Shown here one piece after another: positions 46,706 through 55,918 of a DNA stretch of 64,000 nt (position 1 is its first letter; each line of letters begins with the position of its first letter). The translations under genes were made by a program, and so were the position numbers. This stretch comes from Nannocystales bacterium (GTDB taxonomy: Bacteria > Myxococcota_A > Polyangia > Nannocystales > Nannocystaceae): contig JBOEGF010000023.1 in NCBI GenBank assembly GCA_050633305.1, forward strand, positions 192,001-256,000, read 5' to 3'. Below the pieces are notes generated by a model. It saw only the letters and a list, made by a program, of their open reading frames with translations. It made no database searches and was not told where the DNA came from.

Positions 46706-48465
46706 AACGGAAGCGGGTTCTGGTCCTCGGGGGCGGTTGCGCTGGGGTCGCCGCCGCCTGGGCGCTCTCGTCCACACCGCACTCGCGTCGACGTTTCGAG
46801 GTCACGCTGTTGCAGTCGGGGTGGCGACTGGGAGGCAAGGGTGCCACGGGCCGCGACCCGACACGCGGACACGCGGTGCTCGAGCACGGTCTTCATCTTT
46901 GGCTTGGCTTCTATCGAAACGCGTTCGCCATGGTCCGCGATCTGTACGATCACTGGAACGGGCCCAGCGACGGTCCACAGCGAAGCCTGGAGTCGGCATT
47001 CACTCCGGCCTACGACGTGTCACTCCGGGGAGCAGCTCGCGGAGCGTCGCAGCAGTGGACACTGAACTTTCCCCAGCTCCCCGGACGGCCTTGGGATCCG
47101 AGCCCGGGCACATCGTGGCTGGCGACATCGAAGCGGTGGCTTCAGCAACTCCCGAGCCTGTTGGGAGGGATTCCGAAACAGGACCGCCCGCTGCTGGTCT
47201 CGCTCGGGCGGACCGTCGCGCGTGGTCTTGCACGGGAGTGGGCGCGCTGGGGAGACCACGCGTGGGACCAAATGGACCGCGAGGACCTTCGCACCTGGCT
47301 TGCTCGACACGGGGCGACACGGGAGGTCACCGATAGCCCGCCCGTGGTGGGCCTGTACGACCTTGGGTTCGCATACCCCCACGGACGTCAGAGTGTGCGA
47401 GATGGACGGGCTGCTGCGGGCGTGGCGGTGCGGGTGTTGCTGCGCATGTTCGCGGACTACCGCGGAGCGCCACTGTGGCGAATGTCCGCCGGCATGGGGG
47501 ACACCGTGTTCTCGCCCGCGTGGGACGTGCTTCGAGCCCGTGGAGTCACGCTGTCCTTGTTCCACCACGTCTTGGAGGTCCGTGCAGAGCACGGCAAGGT
47601 CTCCAAGGTCCGAGTCGGCATTCAAGCGTCAGGGTTCGAGGACTACGACCCGTTGATCGACGTCGGACCTATCCGGGCCTGGCCCGAGCGTCCCATCGAG
47701 AGCCGCCTCACCTCCGTGGCACCCGGCGCGTTGGATGGTGATGGGTCCCAGATCCCCGATGATGTGGAGCTCCACCACGGTCGAGACTTCGACGCCGTCG
47801 TGATGGCCATTCCTGCGGCCGCGCAGCGGCACTGCGCCATCGGCCTGGCCAAAGCGAATCCCCGCTACGGAGCGATGCTGGAGGCCTGTCACACGGTCCC
47901 CACGGTCTCCGGTCAGGTTTGGATGTCGCGCAGCGCGGACACCTTGGGTCCTGACGCCGAGCCAACCGTGAGCACTGGGCATCACGGACTGTTCCGGACC
48001 CACGCCAACATGACCGACGTCCTGAAGGCGGAAGCGTGGCGAGAGTCTCCTCGTCACCTCGCCTACCTTTGCGGCGTGGCGCCGCCCGACGTGCTCGCCG
48101 CCAGCGGACGGGACGAAGCCCACGCTCGGCTTCGCGAACTCGCCGAGGCATGGTTTCGCCACGAGGCGCCCGCCTCCTGGCCAGGATCAGCGACCCCCTC
48201 CGGTCATTTCGACGAGGGCTCGCTGCACGTGGACCCCGGTGGTCGGCGCGAAGACGCCATCTACCTGCGAGCCAACACCGAAGCTTGGGAACGCTACGTC
48301 CTCTCCCTTCCCGGCACCACAGCCCACCGCCTGGCCCCCGACGACTCCGGCTTCGAGAACCTGTTCCTCGCGGGCGACTGGACCCGCAACGAGATCAACG
48401 GTGGAAGCGTCGAGGCGGCGGTCTCGTCGGGGATGTCGGCCGCCCGAGCAATCGAGGCCCAGTAA
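46702..48465 (+). CDS. FAD/NAD(P)-binding oxidoreductase 2 (paralog)
   Basis: GGGCAG, GWRLGGKGATGR, EHGLHLWLGFYRNAF, AGMGDTVFSP, NLFLAGDWT...VEAAVSSG. ATGA coupling. Confidence 0.9.
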   Translation: MKRKRVLVLGGGCAGVAAAWALSSTPHSRRRFEVTLLQSGWRLGGKGATGRDPTRGHAVLEHGLHLWLGFYRNAFAMVRDLYDHWNGPSDGPQRSLESAFTPAYDVSLRGAARGASQQWTLNFPQLPGRPWDPSPGTSWLATSKRWLQQLPSLLGGIPKQDRPLLVSLGRTVARGLAREWARWGDHAWDQMDREDLRTWLARHGATREVTDSPPVVGLYDLGFAYPHGRQSVRDGRAAAGVAVRVLLRMFADYRGAPLWRMSAGMGDTVFSPAWDVLRARGVTLSLFHHVLEVRAEHGKVSKVRVGIQASGFEDYDPLIDVGPIRAWPERPIESRLTSVAPGALDGDGSQIPDDVELHHGRDFDAVVMAIPAAAQRHCAIGLAKANPRYGAMLEACHTVPTVSGQVWMSRSADTLGPDAEPTVSTGHHGLFRTHANMTDVLKAEAWRESPRHLAYLCGVAPPDVLAASGRDEAHARLRELAEAWFRHEAPASWPGSATPSGHFDEGSLHVDPGGRREDAIYLRANTEAWERYVLSLPGTTAHRLAPDDSGFENLFLAGDWTRNEINGGSVEAAVSSGMSAARAIEAQ

Positions 48466-49586
48466 TGAGCGAGATGGAAGTTGCCATCGTCGGTGGTGGG
48501 CCGGCGGGTCTCACCACCGCCCTGTCGATCGCGAGGCACGCTCCCTCCCTCCGCGACCGAATCCTCGTGCTCGAGCGTGCAACGTATCCGCGAGAGAAGA
48601 TCTGCGCAGGCGCTGTGTCGGGACGCGCCTGGAGCACCCTGGTCTCACTGGGTGCTCGTCCTCGAGTCCCCGCCGTCCCGGTCGGGGGCTTTGACCTCGA
48701 AGGACACAGGCGCACTGCCCGCGCGCGGATTGGGCGGGCGGGGTTCGTGATCCGCCGAGCCGAGTTCGACGCCGACCTCGCCCAACGCGTGGCGGATGCG
48801 GGCGTTCGGGTCCAGGACGGCACGCGGGTCAAGGAACTCGCCGTGACCGAACGAGGCGCGGTGCTGGAGACCTCTCTCGGAACCCTGCGGTCGCGATTCG
48901 TCGTCGGAGCGGGCGGCGTCGGGTGCATGGTGCGGCGGCACCTCGGTTTGGGGATCGGCCGGCTGCGCGCTCATGTTGTCGAAGCCGACACCGACCCCAG
49001 CAGGTTCGATGCGCAAGACGGGTCCCTGCGGTTCGATGGGGGACGCGACGAGCTCACCGGCTACGTCTGGGACTTCCCGACGATCGTCGCGGGCCGCCTT
49101 CGGGTCTGTCGCGGGGTCTATCAGCTTCGAGACATGAACGCTCCCGAGCACCTGCGCGGACCCGACGTCACACAGATGCTTCGACGGCACCTCGAAGACC
49201 GAGGCGTCGTCGCGGACGGAGGACGGTTCAAGCGATTCGCCGAACGGGGGTATGAGCCCGGACTCGCAATCGCCTCTCGCCGCTGCATGCTCGTCGGCGA
49301 GTCTGCAGGAGTCGATCCGGTGACGGGCGAGGGCATTGGGCCCTCGATCGAAGCAGGGTTGCTCGCAGGTCGTTTCCTGGGCGCGGCGGTCAGCAAGCGG
49401 CTCGACAGCGTCGAGGGCTGGAGTCGCCGACTTCGCCGCTCGGCGGTGGGCCTGGACCTAGCCGCGCGCAGCTTGGTGGCGACGCATTTGCTGTTGAGGC
49501 GACGCCGGATCCTGGATCGGCTGCTGACTTCGCAGAACTATGCCCTGACCGTAGGGGCCCACTACTTCGCGGGGCGAGCGTTCTGA
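48465..49586 (+). CDS. Geranylgeranyl-reductase-like FAD oxidoreductase
   Basis: GGGPAG, YPREKICAG, RRAEFD, GYVWDFP, GESAGVDPVTGEGI. TAATG coupling. Confidence 0.88.
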   Translation: MSEMEVAIVGGGPAGLTTALSIARHAPSLRDRILVLERATYPREKICAGAVSGRAWSTLVSLGARPRVPAVPVGGFDLEGHRRTARARIGRAGFVIRRAEFDADLAQRVADAGVRVQDGTRVKELAVTERGAVLETSLGTLRSRFVVGAGGVGCMVRRHLGLGIGRLRAHVVEADTDPSRFDAQDGSLRFDGGRDELTGYVWDFPTIVAGRLRVCRGVYQLRDMNAPEHLRGPDVTQMLRRHLEDRGVVADGGRFKRFAERGYEPGLAIASRRCMLVGESAGVDPVTGEGIGPSIEAGLLAGRFLGAAVSKRLDSVEGWSRRLRRSAVGLDLAARSLVATHLLLRRRRILDRLLTSQNYALTVGAHYFAGRAF

Positions 49587-49643: not shown

Positions 49644-50888
49644 TCAGGGTTTGGGCTCGAGTACCAGCTCGAAACGCCCGTGGTCGAACGGGGTCCCCGG
49701 TGCAGACTCGACGTGGACGAGTCGCTCGCGCATGCCTTGCTTGTCCAACTCCAGCGCCCGGTGGTGACAGAATGGATTGTTGCCCGGCTTGCCAAAGATG
49801 GGCTCGCTCGTCGCTGTGCAGCCTCCCATGCAAGGTTCGGCGTAGTAACAATCTCCGCAGAAGCCCCAGAGGTCGTTGCGAGTCCGCTGCTCGATGCGCC
49901 GCATCTGGGGCGCACGTTCCCAGATCTTCCTCAGGCCGTGCTCTCGCCATGACCCACCCGTGTTCTCCGCTCCGCCCAGCGACGGGCAGGATTTTATCGA
50001 GCCATCGGGCTCGATCCCCAGACCGCTGAGCCCCGCTTGGCATCCTGGGTAGTACGCTTTGGCGCTCATCGCCCTGCGCAAGGCGGTTTCCAGCGGACCA
50101 AAGTAGCCGAGGTTGTTGCCGGGCCAAACGACGACGCCGTGTGCTCGGCAACGCTCGAGCATGCGCTCGACCTCTTCGAACACGTCCAACATCATGTACG
50201 GCTGCAGGACGAGGTCCGGATGGTCCGCGGCCCCTCCATGGGGGATCGTCAAGAACATCTGCCAGCTCGCGATCCCTGCCTCACCCAGACGATCCGCAAG
50301 CGGAACGATTTGGCTGAGCGTACGGCGATTGATCTGGGTGTTGGCGCAGGCGGTCGCCCCCGCACGCTTGACGTGGGCGATGCCCTCCAGTGCGCGTGCC
50401 CAGCTTCCCTCGCGGCGTCGTAGTGCGTCGTGAGTCTCTTCGAGCCCGTCGATCGAGAACGAGACGAGTTGGAGCCCAGCCTCGACCGCGGCCTCGATGT
50501 GTTGCTGCGTGAAGCCGTAGCCACCCGTGGTCATGCTCGCCTTCATGCCGCGCTCTCGGATCGCTCGAATGACCAGCAAGAAGTCGGGGCGGAGATAGGC
50601 CTCGCCACCGATCAAGATGACTTCGCCGACCCCCATTTCGGCGAGCTCCTCGACCAAGCGCAGCGACTCGTCGGTGCTCAGTTCGTTCCGAAGCGTCTTG
50701 CCCGAGCGGGGACCGCATGAGACGCACGCCTGATCGCACGCTTGCGTGAACGCCCAGACCGCGAGCGTTGGCGTGGGTCGGCGCGGCATCGGACCTTCGA
50801 GGAACGCTCGGTTCTTCGAAGGCGGCAATGCATCGACGATCGGGAGGCTCTGCCGAACCCGCTCGAGCCTTTCGTTGCGCTGTGCCAA
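49644..50888 (-). CDS. Radical SAM/SPASM maturase, splicease (PlpX)-like
   Basis: CDQACVSC, GGEAYLR, PGNNLGYFGP, CQAG...GIEPDGSIKSCPSL, LWGFCGDCYYAEPCMGGC, GKPGNNPFCHHRAL, PFDHGRF. Start uncertain. Confidence 0.88.
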   Translation of the reverse strand: MAQRNERLERVRQSLPIVDALPPSKNRAFLEGPMPRRPTPTLAVWAFTQACDQACVSCGPRSGKTLRNELSTDESLRLVEELAEMGVGEVILIGGEAYLRPDFLLVIRAIRERGMKASMTTGGYGFTQQHIEAAVEAGLQLVSFSIDGLEETHDALRRREGSWARALEGIAHVKRAGATACANTQINRRTLSQIVPLADRLGEAGIASWQMFLTIPHGGAADHPDLVLQPYMMLDVFEEVERMLERCRAHGVVVWPGNNLGYFGPLETALRRAMSAKAYYPGCQAGLSGLGIEPDGSIKSCPSLGGAENTGGSWREHGLRKIWERAPQMRRIEQRTRNDLWGFCGDCYYAEPCMGGCTATSEPIFGKPGNNPFCHHRALELDKQGMRERLVHVESAPGTPFDHGRFELVLEPKP

Positions 50889-50929
50889 CCGCGCTAGGCT
50901 AACTCAGTTTTGTCTGTTATTATAGATTT

Positions 50930-51937
50930 ATGACTCCATGTGCAGGGTGTAGTCGGCTGATTCGCTCAGGAGAAGGCCCTTGCCCGTTCTGCGGGCAACG
51001 CCATGGCACAACGTCGATCGCTGTCGGCCTGCTGAGCTTGGCGCTGGTGGGATGTGGGCCCGTGGCGGGGTCTTCAGACACAGATGCGACGACAGCCGAA
51101 TCCAGCACAGGACCCGGCGATGCGACAGCGCTCCCCGATGAATCGACGACTGGTTCCGGTCCAGCCGGCTCGGCCACGATGACCGGCCAAGTCGACGCGG
51201 GCGACGATGCGAACACGACCGACATCAGCGGTGGGTTCATCTATGGCTCTCCGGACATGGGCCACCCTGATGACGGCATTGAGATCGAGTGCAGCGTCTG
51301 GGAACAAGACTGCGCGAAGAACGAGAAGTGCATGCCGTGGGCCAACGATGGCGGGACGTCGTGGAATGCGACTCGGTGCACGCCGCTTGCGGATGCTCCT
51401 GATGCCGTCGGGGAGCCGTGCACCGCGGAGGGCAGCTTCGTCTCTGGCATCGACACTTGCGAGAGGTGGGCTCTCTGCGCGGGACCGGATCCGCAGGTGC
51501 TCGAAGGGGTTTGCGTCGAAATGTGCAGCGGGTCTCCCGAGGTGCCGGTTTGCAACGACACGGCCAATGGCGTGTGCGTCGGCGCCGACGGGGTAGCGCC
51601 GCTCTGCCTCCCGATCTGCGACCCCTTGATGGGCGGCTGCGACGAGGGATATGCATGCGCACCCGCGGCCGGACCGTGGGAGTGCAGGCCCGAAGGCGAC
51701 GTTCCGCTCGGCGAGCCGTGCGATGACGCGAATGCATGCACCTCCGCAGGTGTGTGCACTCCTCCCGACGCACAGTGCCCCGAGGGGTCGACCGGTTGCT
51801 GCGCGAGTATCTGCGACCTCTCCGATCTCGAGCCCGACCTTGGCTGCGTCAGTGGCCAAACCTGCACCCTCTTCCACGAGGACGGACGTGCGTACCCTGG
51901 CTACGAAGACGTGGGCGTGTGCACGACCGAGAGCTGA
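50930..51937 (+). CDS. Cys-rich lipoprotein with CxxC-x10-CPFC leader and IYG motif
   Basis: MTPCAGCSRLIRSGEGPCPFCG, lipobox LVGC, GGFIYGSPD, then an ECSVWEQDC...KCMPWANDGG domain. Confidence 0.85.
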   Translation: MTPCAGCSRLIRSGEGPCPFCGQRHGTTSIAVGLLSLALVGCGPVAGSSDTDATTAESSTGPGDATALPDESTTGSGPAGSATMTGQVDAGDDANTTDISGGFIYGSPDMGHPDDGIEIECSVWEQDCAKNEKCMPWANDGGTSWNATRCTPLADAPDAVGEPCTAEGSFVSGIDTCERWALCAGPDPQVLEGVCVEMCSGSPEVPVCNDTANGVCVGADGVAPLCLPICDPLMGGCDEGYACAPAAGPWECRPEGDVPLGEPCDDANACTSAGVCTPPDAQCPEGSTGCCASICDLSDLEPDLGCVSGQTCTLFHEDGRAYPGYEDVGVCTTES

Positions 51938-52099: not shown

Positions 52100-53464
52100 G
52101 TGAGCGGCGACGTAGATACACACGGGGAACTCCGTGCGCTGCTCAAGCTGGGTCTGCCCGCCGCCGGAACCCAGCTCGCCGCCATGCTCTTGGGTGTGGT
52201 CGACACGATGATGGTCGGCCGGGTGAGCACCCACGCCCTCGACGCGGTCGCGCTGGGCCACCTGTGGATCTACGGCACGATGATCTTCGGCATGGGGCTG
52301 ATCTGGGGGATGGACCCGCTGATGTCCCAGGCTCACGGCGCGGGAGACAACGGCAAGGTGGCCCGGACCCTTCACTCCGGCTTCTTGCTGGTTGTGTTGC
52401 TGATCCCCCCGCTGTGGTGGGCGTGGTCGCAGACCGAAGCCGTCATGCTCGCGTTCGGGCAGGCACCGGAGCTCGCGGCCGCGGCGGACGTCTACGTGAC
52501 GACGCAGCTGTACAGCATGATCCCCTTCCTGCTGTTCCTCACCTTGCGGCAGTACCTGCAGTCGCGGGGCATCGTGATGCCAGCGCTGTGGGTGATGGTG
52601 GTGGCGAACGTGTTCAACGTCGCCGCCAACTGGGCGCTCATCTTCGGCCACTTGGGATTTGAAGCTCAAGGCCTGGTCGGGGCTGCCAGAGCGACCGCGG
52701 CGACCCGGGCCTTCACACTCTTTGGCCTTCTCGTGTGGATCCTGGTCGCACGCCTGTATGAGGGCGCGTGGGAGCGCCCGACCGCACAGTCGCTTTCGCT
52801 GCGTGGGGTGTGGACGATCGTGAAGCTGGGCCTCCCGATCGGCTTGCAGTACATGCTCGAAGGCTGGGCGTTCCAGGTGAGCACCTTGCTCTCCGGACGC
52901 CTGGGCGAGGCAGAACTCGCGGCGCATACGATTGCACTCAACTTGGCTTCACTCACGTTCATGTTGCCCATGGGCCTCTCCCTGGGGGTCGCGACGAGGG
53001 TCGGCAACCTGGTCGGTGCTGGGCTCCCCAAACGCGCACAGCACTCGGCCCGACTGTCGCTGATGATGGGTGCTGGGATCATGGTCGCCAGCGCGATGCT
53101 CTTCGTCCTTGCACGCGACGCGTTGCCGTACCTGTACACCGAGGACATCGCGGTAGTCGTCCTCGCAGCGAGCATCCTGCCGATCGCGGGGGCGTTTCAG
53201 GTCTTCGACGGAATCCAAGTCGTCGGCGGCGCGATCCTGCGGGGTGTCGGCTCCACTCGACCCGCCGCCGTGTTCAACCTGGTCGCCTACTATGCGCTCG
53301 GCCTTCCGCTTGGGATCGCGCTGACCTTCGGACTGGGCTGGGGCCTCCGGGGTCTGTGGACCGGGCTTGCGGTCGGGCTCGCAATCGTCGCGGGCATCCT
53401 GCTGTGGTGGATCTTCACCCGCGTTCGCTTCGTGCCGTTGGACGACGTGCCCGATCAACCGTAG
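52100..53464 (+). CDS. MATE efflux transporter (NorM-like)
   Basis: About 12 TMs, VVDTMMVGR, KLGLPIG, LAAHTIALN, RVGNLVG, FQVFDGIQ. Confidence 0.95.
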   Translation: MSGDVDTHGELRALLKLGLPAAGTQLAAMLLGVVDTMMVGRVSTHALDAVALGHLWIYGTMIFGMGLIWGMDPLMSQAHGAGDNGKVARTLHSGFLLVVLLIPPLWWAWSQTEAVMLAFGQAPELAAAADVYVTTQLYSMIPFLLFLTLRQYLQSRGIVMPALWVMVVANVFNVAANWALIFGHLGFEAQGLVGAARATAATRAFTLFGLLVWILVARLYEGAWERPTAQSLSLRGVWTIVKLGLPIGLQYMLEGWAFQVSTLLSGRLGEAELAAHTIALNLASLTFMLPMGLSLGVATRVGNLVGAGLPKRAQHSARLSLMMGAGIMVASAMLFVLARDALPYLYTEDIAVVVLAASILPIAGAFQVFDGIQVVGGAILRGVGSTRPAAVFNLVAYYALGLPLGIALTFGLGWGLRGLWTGLAVGLAIVAGILLWWIFTRVRFVPLDDVPDQP

Positions 53465-53943
53465 CCGGACATCCGCTTGGCGAGCGCGACCATCGGCGAC
53501 CCCGCGCGGATCACCGCACCGTTGAAGCGTTCGAGGGCAGAGGATTGCGCCTCCGAAAGGACGCGTGCGGCACCGATGCGATCGTACGTGTCGTCCTGAG
53601 ACACGATCATCCCTTCGTCGTCGTAGAGCAGGTTGGTCATTCCAGAGAACTGGAATGGCGAGCCATCGCGCCGGAGCTTCGGCAGTCGGTTGAACCATTG
53701 CGTCACGACCCGGCCTTCACCGACCACGACCCACTGAATCGGAAACGTCCACTCGTCGAGGCCGCGCATGCTGACCCGAAGGAACTCGCGGATCGCTTCA
53801 CGTCCCTCGATGCGACCGAAGAATGGCTCTTCGTAGGTCCCGTCTTCGCGGAACAAGTCGGCCAAGTCAGTCCAGCGCCGCCCCTCGTGCAGAGCCTGAT
53901 GCCGCGCATAGGCGGTCGCGGTTTCTTCACGGGACAACGTCAT
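53455..53943 (-). CDS. NTF2/SnoaL-like protein
   Basis: WTDLADLFREDGTYEEPFFGRIEGREAIR...YDDEGMIVSQDDTYD. Confidence 0.85.
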   Translation of the reverse strand: MTLSREETATAYARHQALHEGRRWTDLADLFREDGTYEEPFFGRIEGREAIREFLRVSMRGLDEWTFPIQWVVVGEGRVVTQWFNRLPKLRRDGSPFQFSGMTNLLYDDEGMIVSQDDTYDRIGAARVLSEAQSSALERFNGAVIRAGSPMVALAKRMSGYG

Positions 53944-54088
53944 GGCGGCACCGGACCACGGGGTGGCGTCCGGATCAACCTCCATGCGCGCGAAGTCGCG
54001 CCCACCGGACACCCACGTGCCCAATCTCGCAGTATCCTACCTTGTCAGACACCTCCCACCCCCCTACTCTTGGTCCGTGGGCAACAAG

Positions 54089-55918
54089 ATGGGTCTAGGG
54101 ATGCGCTGGCTGGGTGCGCTGGCGGTCGCAGCGTCTCTCGGAGTTGCTTGTGACAGCGGTAATGGCGCCGATGAAGACCTTGGCGATGAGCTCGGCGTCG
54201 GCGGAGCCCTGGGGAAAGCCGACGGAGCTGGGCTCGCAGCGCTCCCGGTCGACGGCGACTACGCTGACACCCAAGTCTGGGCGGTCAACAACCAGTGGGA
54301 AGACACCGACACCCCCGCGGCTCGCGCAGCAGGCATGGCTTGGGGTGCGGACAGCGGGCTCAACTGGGATGAAAAGTACGCGCTGTGGGTGGAGTCGCTC
54401 AACACCATCGACGGCCACTACAACGAGTCCTTCGAGATCACCACGCCGTGGGGCAAGACGCTCGAGGCGGCCAAGCTGGACTGCGCCGACGTGGCGCTGA
54501 CCATGCGCGCGTCCTTCGCTGCTTGGTACGAGCTTCCGTTCTTCGTCACCGCCTACGACAACGGGGAGGCCGTCCACTTCGGACACTTCGGCATTCGTAC
54601 CTCCAGCGGCATCTGGAACAACATGCCGCGGTTCTCGCAGTACCAGGACTACAGCGACATGGGCAGCGATGCTCTGGATGACTGGCCTCAGGACAGCACC
54701 CTGCGGAGCCGCGGCGTTCAGAACGGAGACGACCAAGACTTCGTCTTCGAGGGCGCACGTACTGGAGCCTGGCTCGACGAGCTGCACCTCAACAAACGCG
54801 CGGGTCGGTTCATTCGGCTGATGTTGATCTTCACCGGATCACCGCACCTCGCCGACAGCCGCAACACCTTCAACCTCGAGCCCGAGGCGTTGCGCGAAGG
54901 TGACGTCAACCTCCACCGCTGGCAGGCCCAGGGCGTGGGGCACACGATGTTCGTCATCGAGGTGGACAAGCTCGAGGGCGGCAAGACCGACGCCCGTCTG
55001 GTGGAAGGCAACCTGCCGCCAAGCCAGCCCCGACTGCTCGACGCCGTCAGCAGCAAGCTCCGCCTCACCACCAACACCGGCGGTGGCCCCGGCTACGCCG
55101 AGAACAACGGCGGTCTCAAGCGCTTCCGGGTCGCCAAGAACATGGGCGGCTACTGGACCAACACCTGGATGGCCGCGGACGAGGCGTCGTGGATCGACGA
55201 CCGAGACCACGACGCGATGGCTGCTCGCATCGGGACCCTGCAGGGCTTGCTCGGCGAAGTCTCGCCCGAGGAAAAGATGGCCGCGCTGCTCGACATCCTC
55301 GAGTCCAAGCGAGAGCACCTTCGCGACAAGCCTGCGTCGTGCTCGGCCCGCACCAAGCGCGAAGAGGCGTTCCAAGAGATCTACGCGCTGGCCGCCCAAG
55401 AGTTCGACATGAGCCAGGCCGATGTCGACGCGATGTACCGTATCGCCGACGACTACATCTTCGCCGAGCTCGAGTACTCGCAGTCCAAGACCTGCTGTTG
55501 GCTCGGAAGCACCGAGGCGATGTACGAGACCATCATGGCCGTCAACGCCCAGCGCCAAGAAGAGGCCGAGGCGTGCCTCGAGCCGCTCGTGTTCAAGGCC
55601 GTGGACGGGGAGTACGCCGAGTTCCAGGCGTTCGCACCCGAGAGCTGGGTCGCGTACAGCAACGACGAGCACTGCCCCCAAGGCGAGCTTCCGAACCACA
55701 ACGACGTCGAAGCGACCCACGACTGGACCAACTACTGCGAGTGGACCGACGCTGGTGGGGACTCCGGCGGTGATGACAGCGGGGGCGGCGACTCGGGTGG
55801 TACGGACGGAGCCTCATGCAGCGATCGCTGCGGCGGCATGGCTGACAGCTGCTGGTGCGACGACAGCTGTAGCGAGTACGGCGACTGCTGCGACGACTAC
55901 GCCAGCGTCTGCGGCTGA
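54089..55918 (+). CDS. Large lipoprotein with C-terminal somatomedin B-like domain
   Basis: GVAC lipobox, GKADG, LDCAD...GHT, and SCSDRCGG...CWCDDSCSEYGDCCDDYASVC. Confidence 0.88.
   Translation: MGLGMRWLGALAVAASLGVACDSGNGADEDLGDELGVGGALGKADGAGLAALPVDGDYADTQVWAVNNQWEDTDTPAARAAGMAWGADSGLNWDEKYALWVESLNTIDGHYNESFEITTPWGKTLEAAKLDCADVALTMRASFAAWYELPFFVTAYDNGEAVHFGHFGIRTSSGIWNNMPRFSQYQDYSDMGSDALDDWPQDSTLRSRGVQNGDDQDFVFEGARTGAWLDELHLNKRAGRFIRLMLIFTGSPHLADSRNTFNLEPEALREGDVNLHRWQAQGVGHTMFVIEVDKLEGGKTDARLVEGNLPPSQPRLLDAVSSKLRLTTNTGGGPGYAENNGGLKRFRVAKNMGGYWTNTWMAADEASWIDDRDHDAMAARIGTLQGLLGEVSPEEKMAALLDILESKREHLRDKPASCSARTKREEAFQEIYALAAQEFDMSQADVDAMYRIADDYIFAELEYSQSKTCCWLGSTEAMYETIMAVNAQRQEEAEACLEPLVFKAVDGEYAEFQAFAPESWVAYSNDEHCPQGELPNHNDVEATHDWTNYCEWTDAGGDSGGDDSGGGDSGGTDGASCSDRCGGMADSCWCDDSCSEYGDCCDDYASVCG

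Follow-up and report, generated by a model that had tools for sequence, protein, structure and literature searches.

Here we describe a pair of divergent genes in a 64,000-nt stretch of DNA (the window) from a Nannocystales bacterium (Nannocystaceae, Myxococcota_A; GCA_050633305.1, contig JBOEGF010000023.1, positions 192,001-256,000 of the forward strand). On balance, we favor reading the pair as a two-gene system of the splicease type, in which a radical S-adenosylmethionine (SAM) enzyme modifies the neighboring zinc-ribbon lipoprotein at Tyr105. The computed support for this reading is that the two genes form a conserved unit, that the zinc ribbon, the lipobox and the Tyr-Gly site of the partner are conserved, and that the enzyme is kin to the enzymes of the TIGR04103 type. 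A first-pass annotation, made from the letters of the DNA alone, had proposed backbone splicing of this exported protein, and its interpretation was supported overall. To our knowledge, spliceases are the only cellular route by which alpha-keto-beta-amino acids enter ribosomal chains. As described in sections of two papers, these enzymes excise a tyramine equivalent at an X-Tyr-Gly (XYG) site (PMC11414181, PMC11626197). The features of the pair, in window coordinates, are the following.

49644-50888, reverse strand: radical SAM/SPASM enzyme, splicease-like, 414 aa, TTG start, the X protein of the two-gene system (from the open reading frame (ORF) and Pfam)
50889-50929, no strand: A+T-rich divergent intergenic region of 41 bp between the two start codons (from the sequence)
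50930-51937, forward strand: probable substrate, a zinc-ribbon lipoprotein precursor of 335 aa, ATG start, with one Tyr-Gly and a Cys-rich domain (from the ORF)
50939-50992, forward strand: zinc ribbon of the signal-peptide n-region, C4-x2-C7-x10-C18-P-F-C21, proposed to dock the enzyme (from the sequence)
51008-51055, forward strand: hydrophobic h-region and lipobox L39-V-G-C42 (TTSIAVGLLSLALVGC42; by eye and regular expression)
51056-51229, forward strand: disordered Ser/Thr/Asp/Gly-rich linker, residues 43-100 (predicted local distance difference test score (pLDDT) below 50 in AlphaFold2 (AF2))
51230-51253, forward strand: proposed modification site G101-G-F-I-Y105-G106-S-P108, where X = Ile104 (from conservation and the predicted interface)
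51281-51934, forward strand: C-terminal domain (residues 118-335), rich in Cys and in beta structure, from a lipoprotein family expanded in this lineage (from paralogues and AF2)

The two genes run apart from a TTG and an ATG start separated by 41 bp, in line with the roughly 40 bp given in the first-pass annotation, and this short interval is mostly kept in the closest metagenomic relative, L125 (loci outside the window carry L numbers). The partner begins with MTPC4AGC7-x10-C18PFC21; the CxxC-x10-CPFC segment that had been noticed ahead of a lipoprotein signal can thus be read directly, with the hydrophobic run to lipobox Cys42 behind it. The segment GGFIYGSPD (residues 101-109) does lie at the junction of linker and domain, and its Y105-G106 (nt 51242-51247) is, as had been said, the single YG of the 335-aa protein, which also has one YA at residue 241, inside the Cys-rich domain. 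By its sequence the protein reads as a lipoprotein, with L39-V-G-C42 at the end of the hydrophobic run and C42 invariant in 11/11 aligned proteins. In an AF2 model of the whole partner (mean pLDDT 65.6), residues 27-116 fall below 50, and the beta-rich part, residues 118-335, reaches 72-90. The entry for this protein in a public protein collection begins only at residue 45, with Val45 taken as the start Met (window 50930-51062), and the deposited gene call seems to miss both the zinc ribbon and the signal peptide.

Family searches placed the partner in no Pfam family and gave it no significant match in NCBIfam, where the sole hit stands at E 0.0052 and 16 bits against a cut-off of 250. Neither the partner nor three small relatives matched the Nif11-leader model TIGR03798. 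The Pfam models Zn_Ribbon_1, Zn_ribbon_3, DZR and UPF0547 gave no hit in the window partner, and the zinc-ribbon hits of its relatives stay below the gathering scores (10-20 bits vs 25-29). The C-terminal domain carries the motif ECxxWxQDC..EKCMPWANDGG..WNATRC and was found in 18/23 other genomes of the same family and in 0/16 genomes of other families. Its fold had no match in the PDB at E <= 0.001 by Foldseek (best 0.15, to TNFR/EGF-like Cys-rich chains) and none at Z >= 5 in a wide VIA-align search (best Z 3.5 over 36 residues, to small cystine-knot peptides), and a protein atlas search returned only Myxococcota clusters without a name or Pfam family, at scores of 0.88-0.93.

The combination of a radical SAM enzyme with a zinc-ribbon partner recurs within the source genome, which measures 11.0 Mb with 65.9% G+C. 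The window enzyme has four paralogues there at 43-54% identity, and four of the five radical SAM paralogues stand directly beside one or more zinc-ribbon/lipobox genes with Y[GA] sites. These pairs are listed here, places elsewhere in the genome being given with C numbers.

Window 49644-51937, divergent: the window pair, site GGFIYGSPD
C24:109838-110665: paralogous substrate with the same Cys-rich domain, site CGGFYGGCP, enzyme adjacent
C24:121008-121451: paralogous substrate, FGGSYYAGP twice, enzyme adjacent
C6:198502-199647: two paralogous substrates, KYGAPP twice in each, enzyme adjacent

The scan for further CPFC-leader/YG proteins that the first-pass annotation suggested was run with regular expressions in six frames over the genome; it returned 26 ORFs, 18 of which were accepted by eye as one family. 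Its members share the plan CxxC-x10-11-CP[FH]C, a hydrophobic run, a lipobox Cys and an acidic or hydroxyl-rich tail with one to three sites (ISPDYGVPT, KYGAPP). Among the 36 Tyr residues that follow the anchor in these 18 proteins, 31 stand in YG and 2 in YA, against a P(G|Y) of 0.094 as background for the genome; since the members are kin and not independent, a binomial p-value for this excess would be overstated. The Cys-rich domain itself occurs in 36-37 copies in the genome, including that of the window, and the zinc ribbon together with a junction YG is found in just 2/36 of these paralogues, both of them the ones adjacent to a radical SAM gene. Judged from these sequences, the pairing of the enzyme with zinc-ribbon partners is not chance.

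Two arrangements in this genome are also worth recording. At C24:108625-110665 the substrate gene ends in TGA and is followed, with almost no gap and without a change of frame, by the enzyme gene, so that the search saw the two as one long open frame with a single stop. At C14:153522-155950 lie five tandem zinc-ribbon/lipobox/YG genes of 121-168 aa, most of them ending in ISPDYGVPT, about 10 kb from the fifth radical SAM paralogue (C14:165345-166604), which itself has no directly adjacent substrate gene.

The pairing extends to other genomes. An enzyme-based scan kept 80 loci from genome contigs, and a metagenome scan kept 79; each locus was examined for a ribbon-plus-hydrophobic ORF at most 1.5 kb from the enzyme. 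The precursors were detected by custom regular expressions, whose false-positive rate was judged low (8 unrelated matches in the 11-Mb genome and 0 in 71 control loci). A ribbon ORF was present in 32/38 Myxococcota-labelled loci whose enzyme is at least 40% identical, in 0/21 cyanobacterial loci, in 0/50 loci whose enzyme is less than 40% identical, and in 16/40 unlabelled metagenome loci at 40% identity or more, many of which are short-flanked or of the cyanobacterial type. Four of the six Myxococcota loci without such an ORF have a flank shorter than 900 bp, and the other two, L069 and L077, belong to the cyanobacterial-type clade. Beyond the enzyme and the substrate, no neighbor is conserved in any of the 172 other loci. 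Only two genes are conserved across loci, and no Y protein was identified, although no search aimed at a Y protein was made; binary splicease systems that lack the Y protein occur in many bacteria according to passages of one paper (PMC11414181).

The 65 distinct precursors linked to a radical SAM gene share a common build. CPFC is found in 50/65, a ribbon spacing of 10 residues in 59/65, and a lipobox-like Cys that closes the hydrophobic run in 62/65. They contain 175 Tyr residues after the anchor, 141 in YG and 8 in YA, and the 149 sites give the consensus [PA]-x-Y-G-[AGS]-P-P, whose Y-G-[AGS]-P portion is matched by GFIYGSP of the window protein. The sole linked precursor without Y[GA] extends to the end of its locus. 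In 11/62 linked precursors Y-G comes immediately after the lipobox Cys, as in LMACYGAPP; examples are C6:198502-199068 of the same genome and those at L039, L048, L050, L054, L064, L072 and L076. On their sequence, the X-Y-G site of these precursors would have the lipidated Cys as its X. Such precursors are found typically with the smaller enzyme clade described below, which includes Myxococcaceae.

Substrates with the folded C-terminal domain were found in this bacterial family only, with 11 examples. Among these is L127, where an enzyme fragment 88% identical to that of the window is divergent from a 329-aa partner orthologue of 58% identity; the orthologue keeps MTPC..C..CPFC, the lipobox and SSGFIYGSPD, and its linker cannot be aligned with that of the window protein. 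Ten further places matching the partner were fetched from genomes of the same family (L204-L213). Each of the eight with a ribbon (L204-L211) adjoins an enzyme of 50-60% identity, and three gene orders occur, the substrate lying upstream of the enzyme or downstream on the same strand; neither of the two ribbon-less homologues (L212, L213) has a radical SAM gene in its 6-kb locus. In the 11-row alignment of the partner, C4, C7, R9, C18, P19, F20, C21, C42 and F103 are invariant and G106 is nearly so. The motif F-I-Y-G or F-Y-G-G stands at the junction in 8/11 rows, and counting the YA forms F(I)Y[GA] is kept in 10/11 (8 YG, 2 YA), which bears out the expectation that the site would be conserved in homologues linked to a radical SAM enzyme.

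The enzyme matches the Pfam models Radical_SAM (80.8 bits) and SPASM (25 bits), and its best curated model is TIGR04103, the nif11-class peptide radical SAM maturase 3 (type I); another match is TIGR03913, the GDL motif peptide-associated radical SAM/SPASM maturase. The cluster cysteines C51/C55/C58 (CX3CX2C) are invariant in a 50-row enzyme alignment, as are the SPASM cysteines C283, C301, C344, C347, C353, C357 and C374, which follow the pattern C283-x12-G-x4-C301 ... C344-x2-C-x5-C-x3-C357 ... C374. Four cyanobacterial relatives, 45-49% identical to the window enzyme, pass TIGR04103 with 823-854 bits (cut-off 725). The passing cyanobacterial enzymes adjoin precursors with [MLI]YG cores such as QPMYGVV and QPLYGVI; two of these precursors were scanned, and both hit TIGR03798, the Nif11-leader model. 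As an observation apart, a conserved stretch of about 35 residues extends the N-terminus of the myxobacterial enzymes (enzyme residues 1-39; consensus RRRLPVV..LP, with P16 nearly invariant) and is absent from the cyanobacterial TIGR04103 enzymes.

Two trees were built to place the enzyme. A FastTree was computed from 98 rows, and 85 of them fall in an ingroup with support 100, which is composed of two zinc-ribbon-linked groups (15 and 45 rows) and a TIGR04103-like group (25 rows). A quick IQ-TREE used 51 chosen rows of these 98, was rooted on six distant SPASM enzymes, and gave supports by the Shimodaira-Hasegawa-like approximate likelihood ratio test (SH-aLRT) of 99 for the ingroup, 99 for the TIGR04103-like group and 95 for the smaller ribbon-linked group, the last two being sisters (93). 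The larger ribbon-linked set is paraphyletic around the two other groups, with deep nodes of only 66-71 support. The window enzyme sits in a 10-row clade (99), in which 7/10 rows have domain-bearing substrates. In both trees the ingroup is distant from SPASM enzymes of 26-33% identity. By this phylogeny of sequences, the enzyme is kin to the TIGR04103-type enzymes and, through them, probably to the spliceases.

The complex of the two proteins was modelled from the enzyme (with its 50-row alignment), residues 1-125 of the partner (with the 11-row alignment), SAM and three 4Fe-4S clusters. Its scores of 0.88, 0.89 and 0.88 (best of three controls 0.00) pass a mark that 116/157 solved complexes and 2/215 mismatched pairs reach, a calibration that holds only roughly here, given the use of our own alignments and of riding ligands. 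Between runs, at least 65% of contacts coincide, and the partner pLDDT is at least 49. Confident contacts on the partner side involve ribbon residues 1, 3, 7-10 and 19 and site residues 97-112. Partner residues 105-108 touch enzyme residues 44, 91, 93, 120, 143, 181-183, 208-210, 255 and 302, which by sequence position are the inner-barrel strand ends and the region of the first SPASM Cys, and partner L10 touches enzyme residues 263, 267 and 349. The model is thus predicted to place Y105-P108 in the enzyme barrel and the ribbon against the enzyme, and it supports binding of the two proteins at the level of prediction. No splicease structure was found in the PDB, where the nearest sequence matches are SkfB 6efn (E 1.5e-16) and PqqE 6c8v (E 1.5e-11); the result is therefore unlikely to be a memory of a like complex, though other complexes of radical SAM enzymes with peptides do exist. 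The zinc-ribbon leader had been put forward as the recognition element, and both this predicted contact and the company that the ribbon keeps with the enzyme across Myxococcota support that proposal. Conservation of the interface was set aside as evidence, because 22/55 interface residues of the enzyme (nearly) invariant against 123/414 overall is too small an enrichment.

It is instructive to compare the pair with the known systems. The type I systems (PlpX/PlpY/PlpA, and PcpXYA of Pleurocapsa) likewise have a radical SAM/SPASM enzyme beside ribosomal substrates with X-Tyr-Gly sites; the TIGR04103 enzymes of cyanobacteria form one clade with the window enzyme, and their core P-[ML]-Y-G-V resembles the [PA]-x-Y-G-[AGS]-P of the window family. 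In contrast to type I, the leader here joins a zinc ribbon to a lipoprotein signal and is not of the Nif11 or NHLP kind, the enzyme falls below the TIGR04103 cut-off, only two genes are conserved, and the window substrate, 335 aa long, has a folded domain and one site only. The type II systems of Rheinheimera (RhaX/RhaA, RcsX/RcsA, RasX/RasA) also consist of enzyme and precursor only, with an N-terminal leader element in contact with the enzyme, a contact that here is predicted from the model. In the binary Rha system, as passages of two papers have it, the leader contacts and activates the enzyme through an alpha-helix (PMC11414181, PMC11626197). The corresponding element here would instead be a four-Cys ribbon, and the products there are short disulfide peptides whereas ours is a lipoprotein. 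SkfB and PqqE share the radical SAM core and the SPASM auxiliary clusters, but the similarity is distant and confined to the core, and their substrates and chemistries differ. Finally, the hydrophobic run ending in L-V-G-C with its conserved Cys is like the signal peptides handled by Lgt and LspA, from which it differs in that its n-region, about 26 residues long, is a conserved zinc ribbon and accompanies a radical SAM enzyme.

We infer the excision chemistry, the order of events, the cleavage of the leader and the role of the product as follows. The cytoplasmic enzyme would bind the freshly synthesized precursor of the lipoprotein by the zinc ribbon with which the signal peptide starts, and the segment G-F-I-Y105-G106-S-P would be threaded into its barrel. 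By analogy with the characterized spliceases, a tyramine equivalent (C8H9NO, ~135.06 Da) would be excised from Tyr105 before export, leaving Ile104 and Gly106 joined via an alpha-keto-beta-amino amide. The Sec and lipoprotein machinery would then export the precursor, lipidate Cys42 and cut at the lipobox, a cleavage that would remove residues 1-41 with both the ribbon and the hydrophobic segment. Maturation would leave a folded protein, rich in disulfides and held by a lipid anchor, that has a single electrophilic keto-amide where the linker meets the domain as a hinge. Given a splicease-related enzyme beside an exported lipoprotein with a Tyr-Gly site, the cell probably makes, on this analogy, such a lipid-anchored folded protein with a reactive backbone keto-amide. 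The mature lipoprotein may face the periplasm instead of the cell surface.

More tentatively, we can picture the lipoprotein signal peptide as doubling as the leader of a peptide made on the ribosome and modified after translation (RiPP): it is possible that the ribbon docks and perhaps activates the splicease and is then removed by signal peptidase II, and that the resulting hinge keto-amide lipoprotein serves as a covalent warhead of the envelope, for example as a tethered protease trap. For small spliceotides, protease inhibition is reported in a section of one paper (PMC11626197). A term search of a 2023 review of RiPP leader removal found neither "signal peptidase" nor "lipoprotein" (PMC10885120).

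Several findings weigh against the splicease reading, and they concern the enzyme, the site and the partner. The enzyme scores 409.1 bits with TIGR04103 (cut-off 725) and 362.8 with TIGR03913 (cut-off 591.75); falling below both cut-offs, it is a member of no curated equivalog, including the family said to hold PlpX. We take IPR026482 to be the same family as TIGR04103. PlpX is assigned to IPR026482 in a passage of one paper (PMC11002830). The label "PlpX-like" given in the first-pass annotation therefore holds at the level of the family, through the Radical_SAM and SPASM domains and the best match to TIGR04103, and does not reach the equivalog. For the placement among spliceases, the clade with the TIGR04103-passing cyanobacterial enzymes comes from trees whose rows contain no PlpX, PcpX, RhaX or any other characterized splicease, nor any Rheinheimera sequence. 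As for the site, 2/11 rows of the partner alignment read S-F-Y-A-G (L210 and L211, SFYAGC), the substrate at C24:121008 of the same genome, which is linked to a radical SAM gene, likewise has YA (GGSYYAGP twice), and L208 has no Tyr at the aligned position and a G-V-Y-G twelve residues later. The sections on spliceases in PMC11414181 and PMC11626197 describe XYG sites only, and these YA sites may reflect a relaxed site rule or a different reaction. Concerning the partner, its fold in the complex is uncertain, with a pLDDT of about 50, and the lipobox call rests on inspection by eye and a regular expression. In L125, whose enzyme is 93% identical, the divergent gene (L125:1-190) matches the window for about 24 nt (MTPCAAC), then diverges and stops after 16 codons, which may be an artefact of the contig end or a loss of the substrate gene.

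Some of these points would suit a different chemistry. It is conceivable, if unlikely, that the same pair and the same Tyr site serve another radical reaction (a Tyr cross-link, epimerization, hydroxylation, or cleavage without religation), so that the clade represents a sister activity of the spliceases. An enzyme that stays below TIGR04103 while being 45-49% identical to its passing members could belong to such a sister activity, and the linked substrates with YA, or with Cys beside the site (CGGFYGGCP, QGCSFYAGCP), could be its targets; radical SAM/SPASM enzymes are known for many peptide modifications, as the range of NCBIfam names matched here also illustrates. However, the context [PA]-x-Y-G-small-P resembles the P[ML]YGV cores beside the TIGR04103-passing enzymes, and in the rooted IQ-TREE the TIGR04103-like clade nests among the zinc-ribbon-linked clades, albeit with deep nodes at 66-71. 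Since it is bracketed by ribbon-linked clades in this way, a shared ancestral reaction can be argued.

A further question is whether the ribbon ever leaves the protein. The Cys at the end of the hydrophobic run, present in 62/65 precursors and in 11/11 domain-bearing homologues, is hard to reconcile with a plain transmembrane helix, and 34 ribbon-less domain paralogues are apparently ordinary lipoproteins, judged from where their alignments start. We therefore regard it as rather improbable that the protein keeps the ribbon for good, as the cytoplasmic head of a single-pass type II membrane protein with an unprocessed lipobox-like Cys; any modification would in that case act on a membrane-spanning protein that still carries its ribbon. 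In favor of this reading, signal peptides of lipoproteins do not usually have an n-region of about 26 residues containing a folded ribbon, and 3/65 precursors have no canonical lipobox.

It seems very improbable that the 335-aa protein is no substrate at all, the enzyme serving small zinc-ribbon/YG proteins elsewhere and the neighbor having merely inherited a leader-like N-terminus. This idea draws on the observation that 12/18 family members in the genome are not beside a radical SAM gene, from which it follows that the enzymes must act in trans on some of them, and on the single site of the 335-aa protein where the small proteins have one to five. Yet the ribbon and F103 are kept in the orthologue and in 8/8 radical SAM-linked homologues despite the changed gene order, the junction Y[GA] is kept in 10/11 aligned proteins, and the modelled complex puts the protein's own site in the barrel. 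A SPASM enzyme of the cofactor or heme type (AhbD/NirJ-like), unrelated to its neighbor, is hardly credible. The name "heme biosynthesis protein" given to homologue P0073 in one source and weak hits to the AhbD and NirJ models speak for it, but these hits stay far below the cut-offs (AhbD 141 bits, cut-off 500; NirJ 100 bits, cut-off 515), no heme-pathway neighbors are conserved, and the linkage to zinc-ribbon/YG genes would be left unexplained.

If the more tentative picture of a signal peptide that doubles as leader is true, the product would be a genetically encoded covalent warhead on the myxobacterial envelope, and a mature form would for the first time be predicted for a natural spliceotide of protein size. 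The contribution of the window is the domain-bearing substrate of 335 aa, which combines a folded Cys-rich domain with one site at the hinge; here the natural substrate would be a folded protein and not a peptide. The system also offers an explicit maturation route, from cytoplasmic modification through export and lipidation to the lipobox cut, and the compact zinc-ribbon docking element together with the short site G-F-I-Y-G-S-P may be of interest for the labelling or arming of proteins by spliceases. A literature search for zinc-ribbon lipoprotein substrates of spliceases brought up nothing judged related, although Scott et al. 2022 (Chem), which that search did not cover, may already class this type; a search by TIGR04103, TIGR03913 and the model names found no paper. 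According to a passage in PMC10849128, Scott et al. 2022 reported 189 genera and 27 confirmed pairs.

Other genes near the pair were considered as parts of the system. These were the MATE transporter (52100-53464), a flavoprotein of the geranylgeranyl-reductase family (48036-49586) and a SnoaL-like gene (53455-54024); each has a counterpart in 0/172 other loci (13 + 159), and all were therefore rejected. A dataset search listed no RNA dataset and one DNA dataset, a microbial-mat metagenome. Farther along, window 53942-55918 encodes a probable lipoprotein of 658 aa whose C-terminal end is a Cys-rich module resembling Somatomedin B (27.1 bits, cut-off 23.1), a type of domain that is not usual in bacteria.

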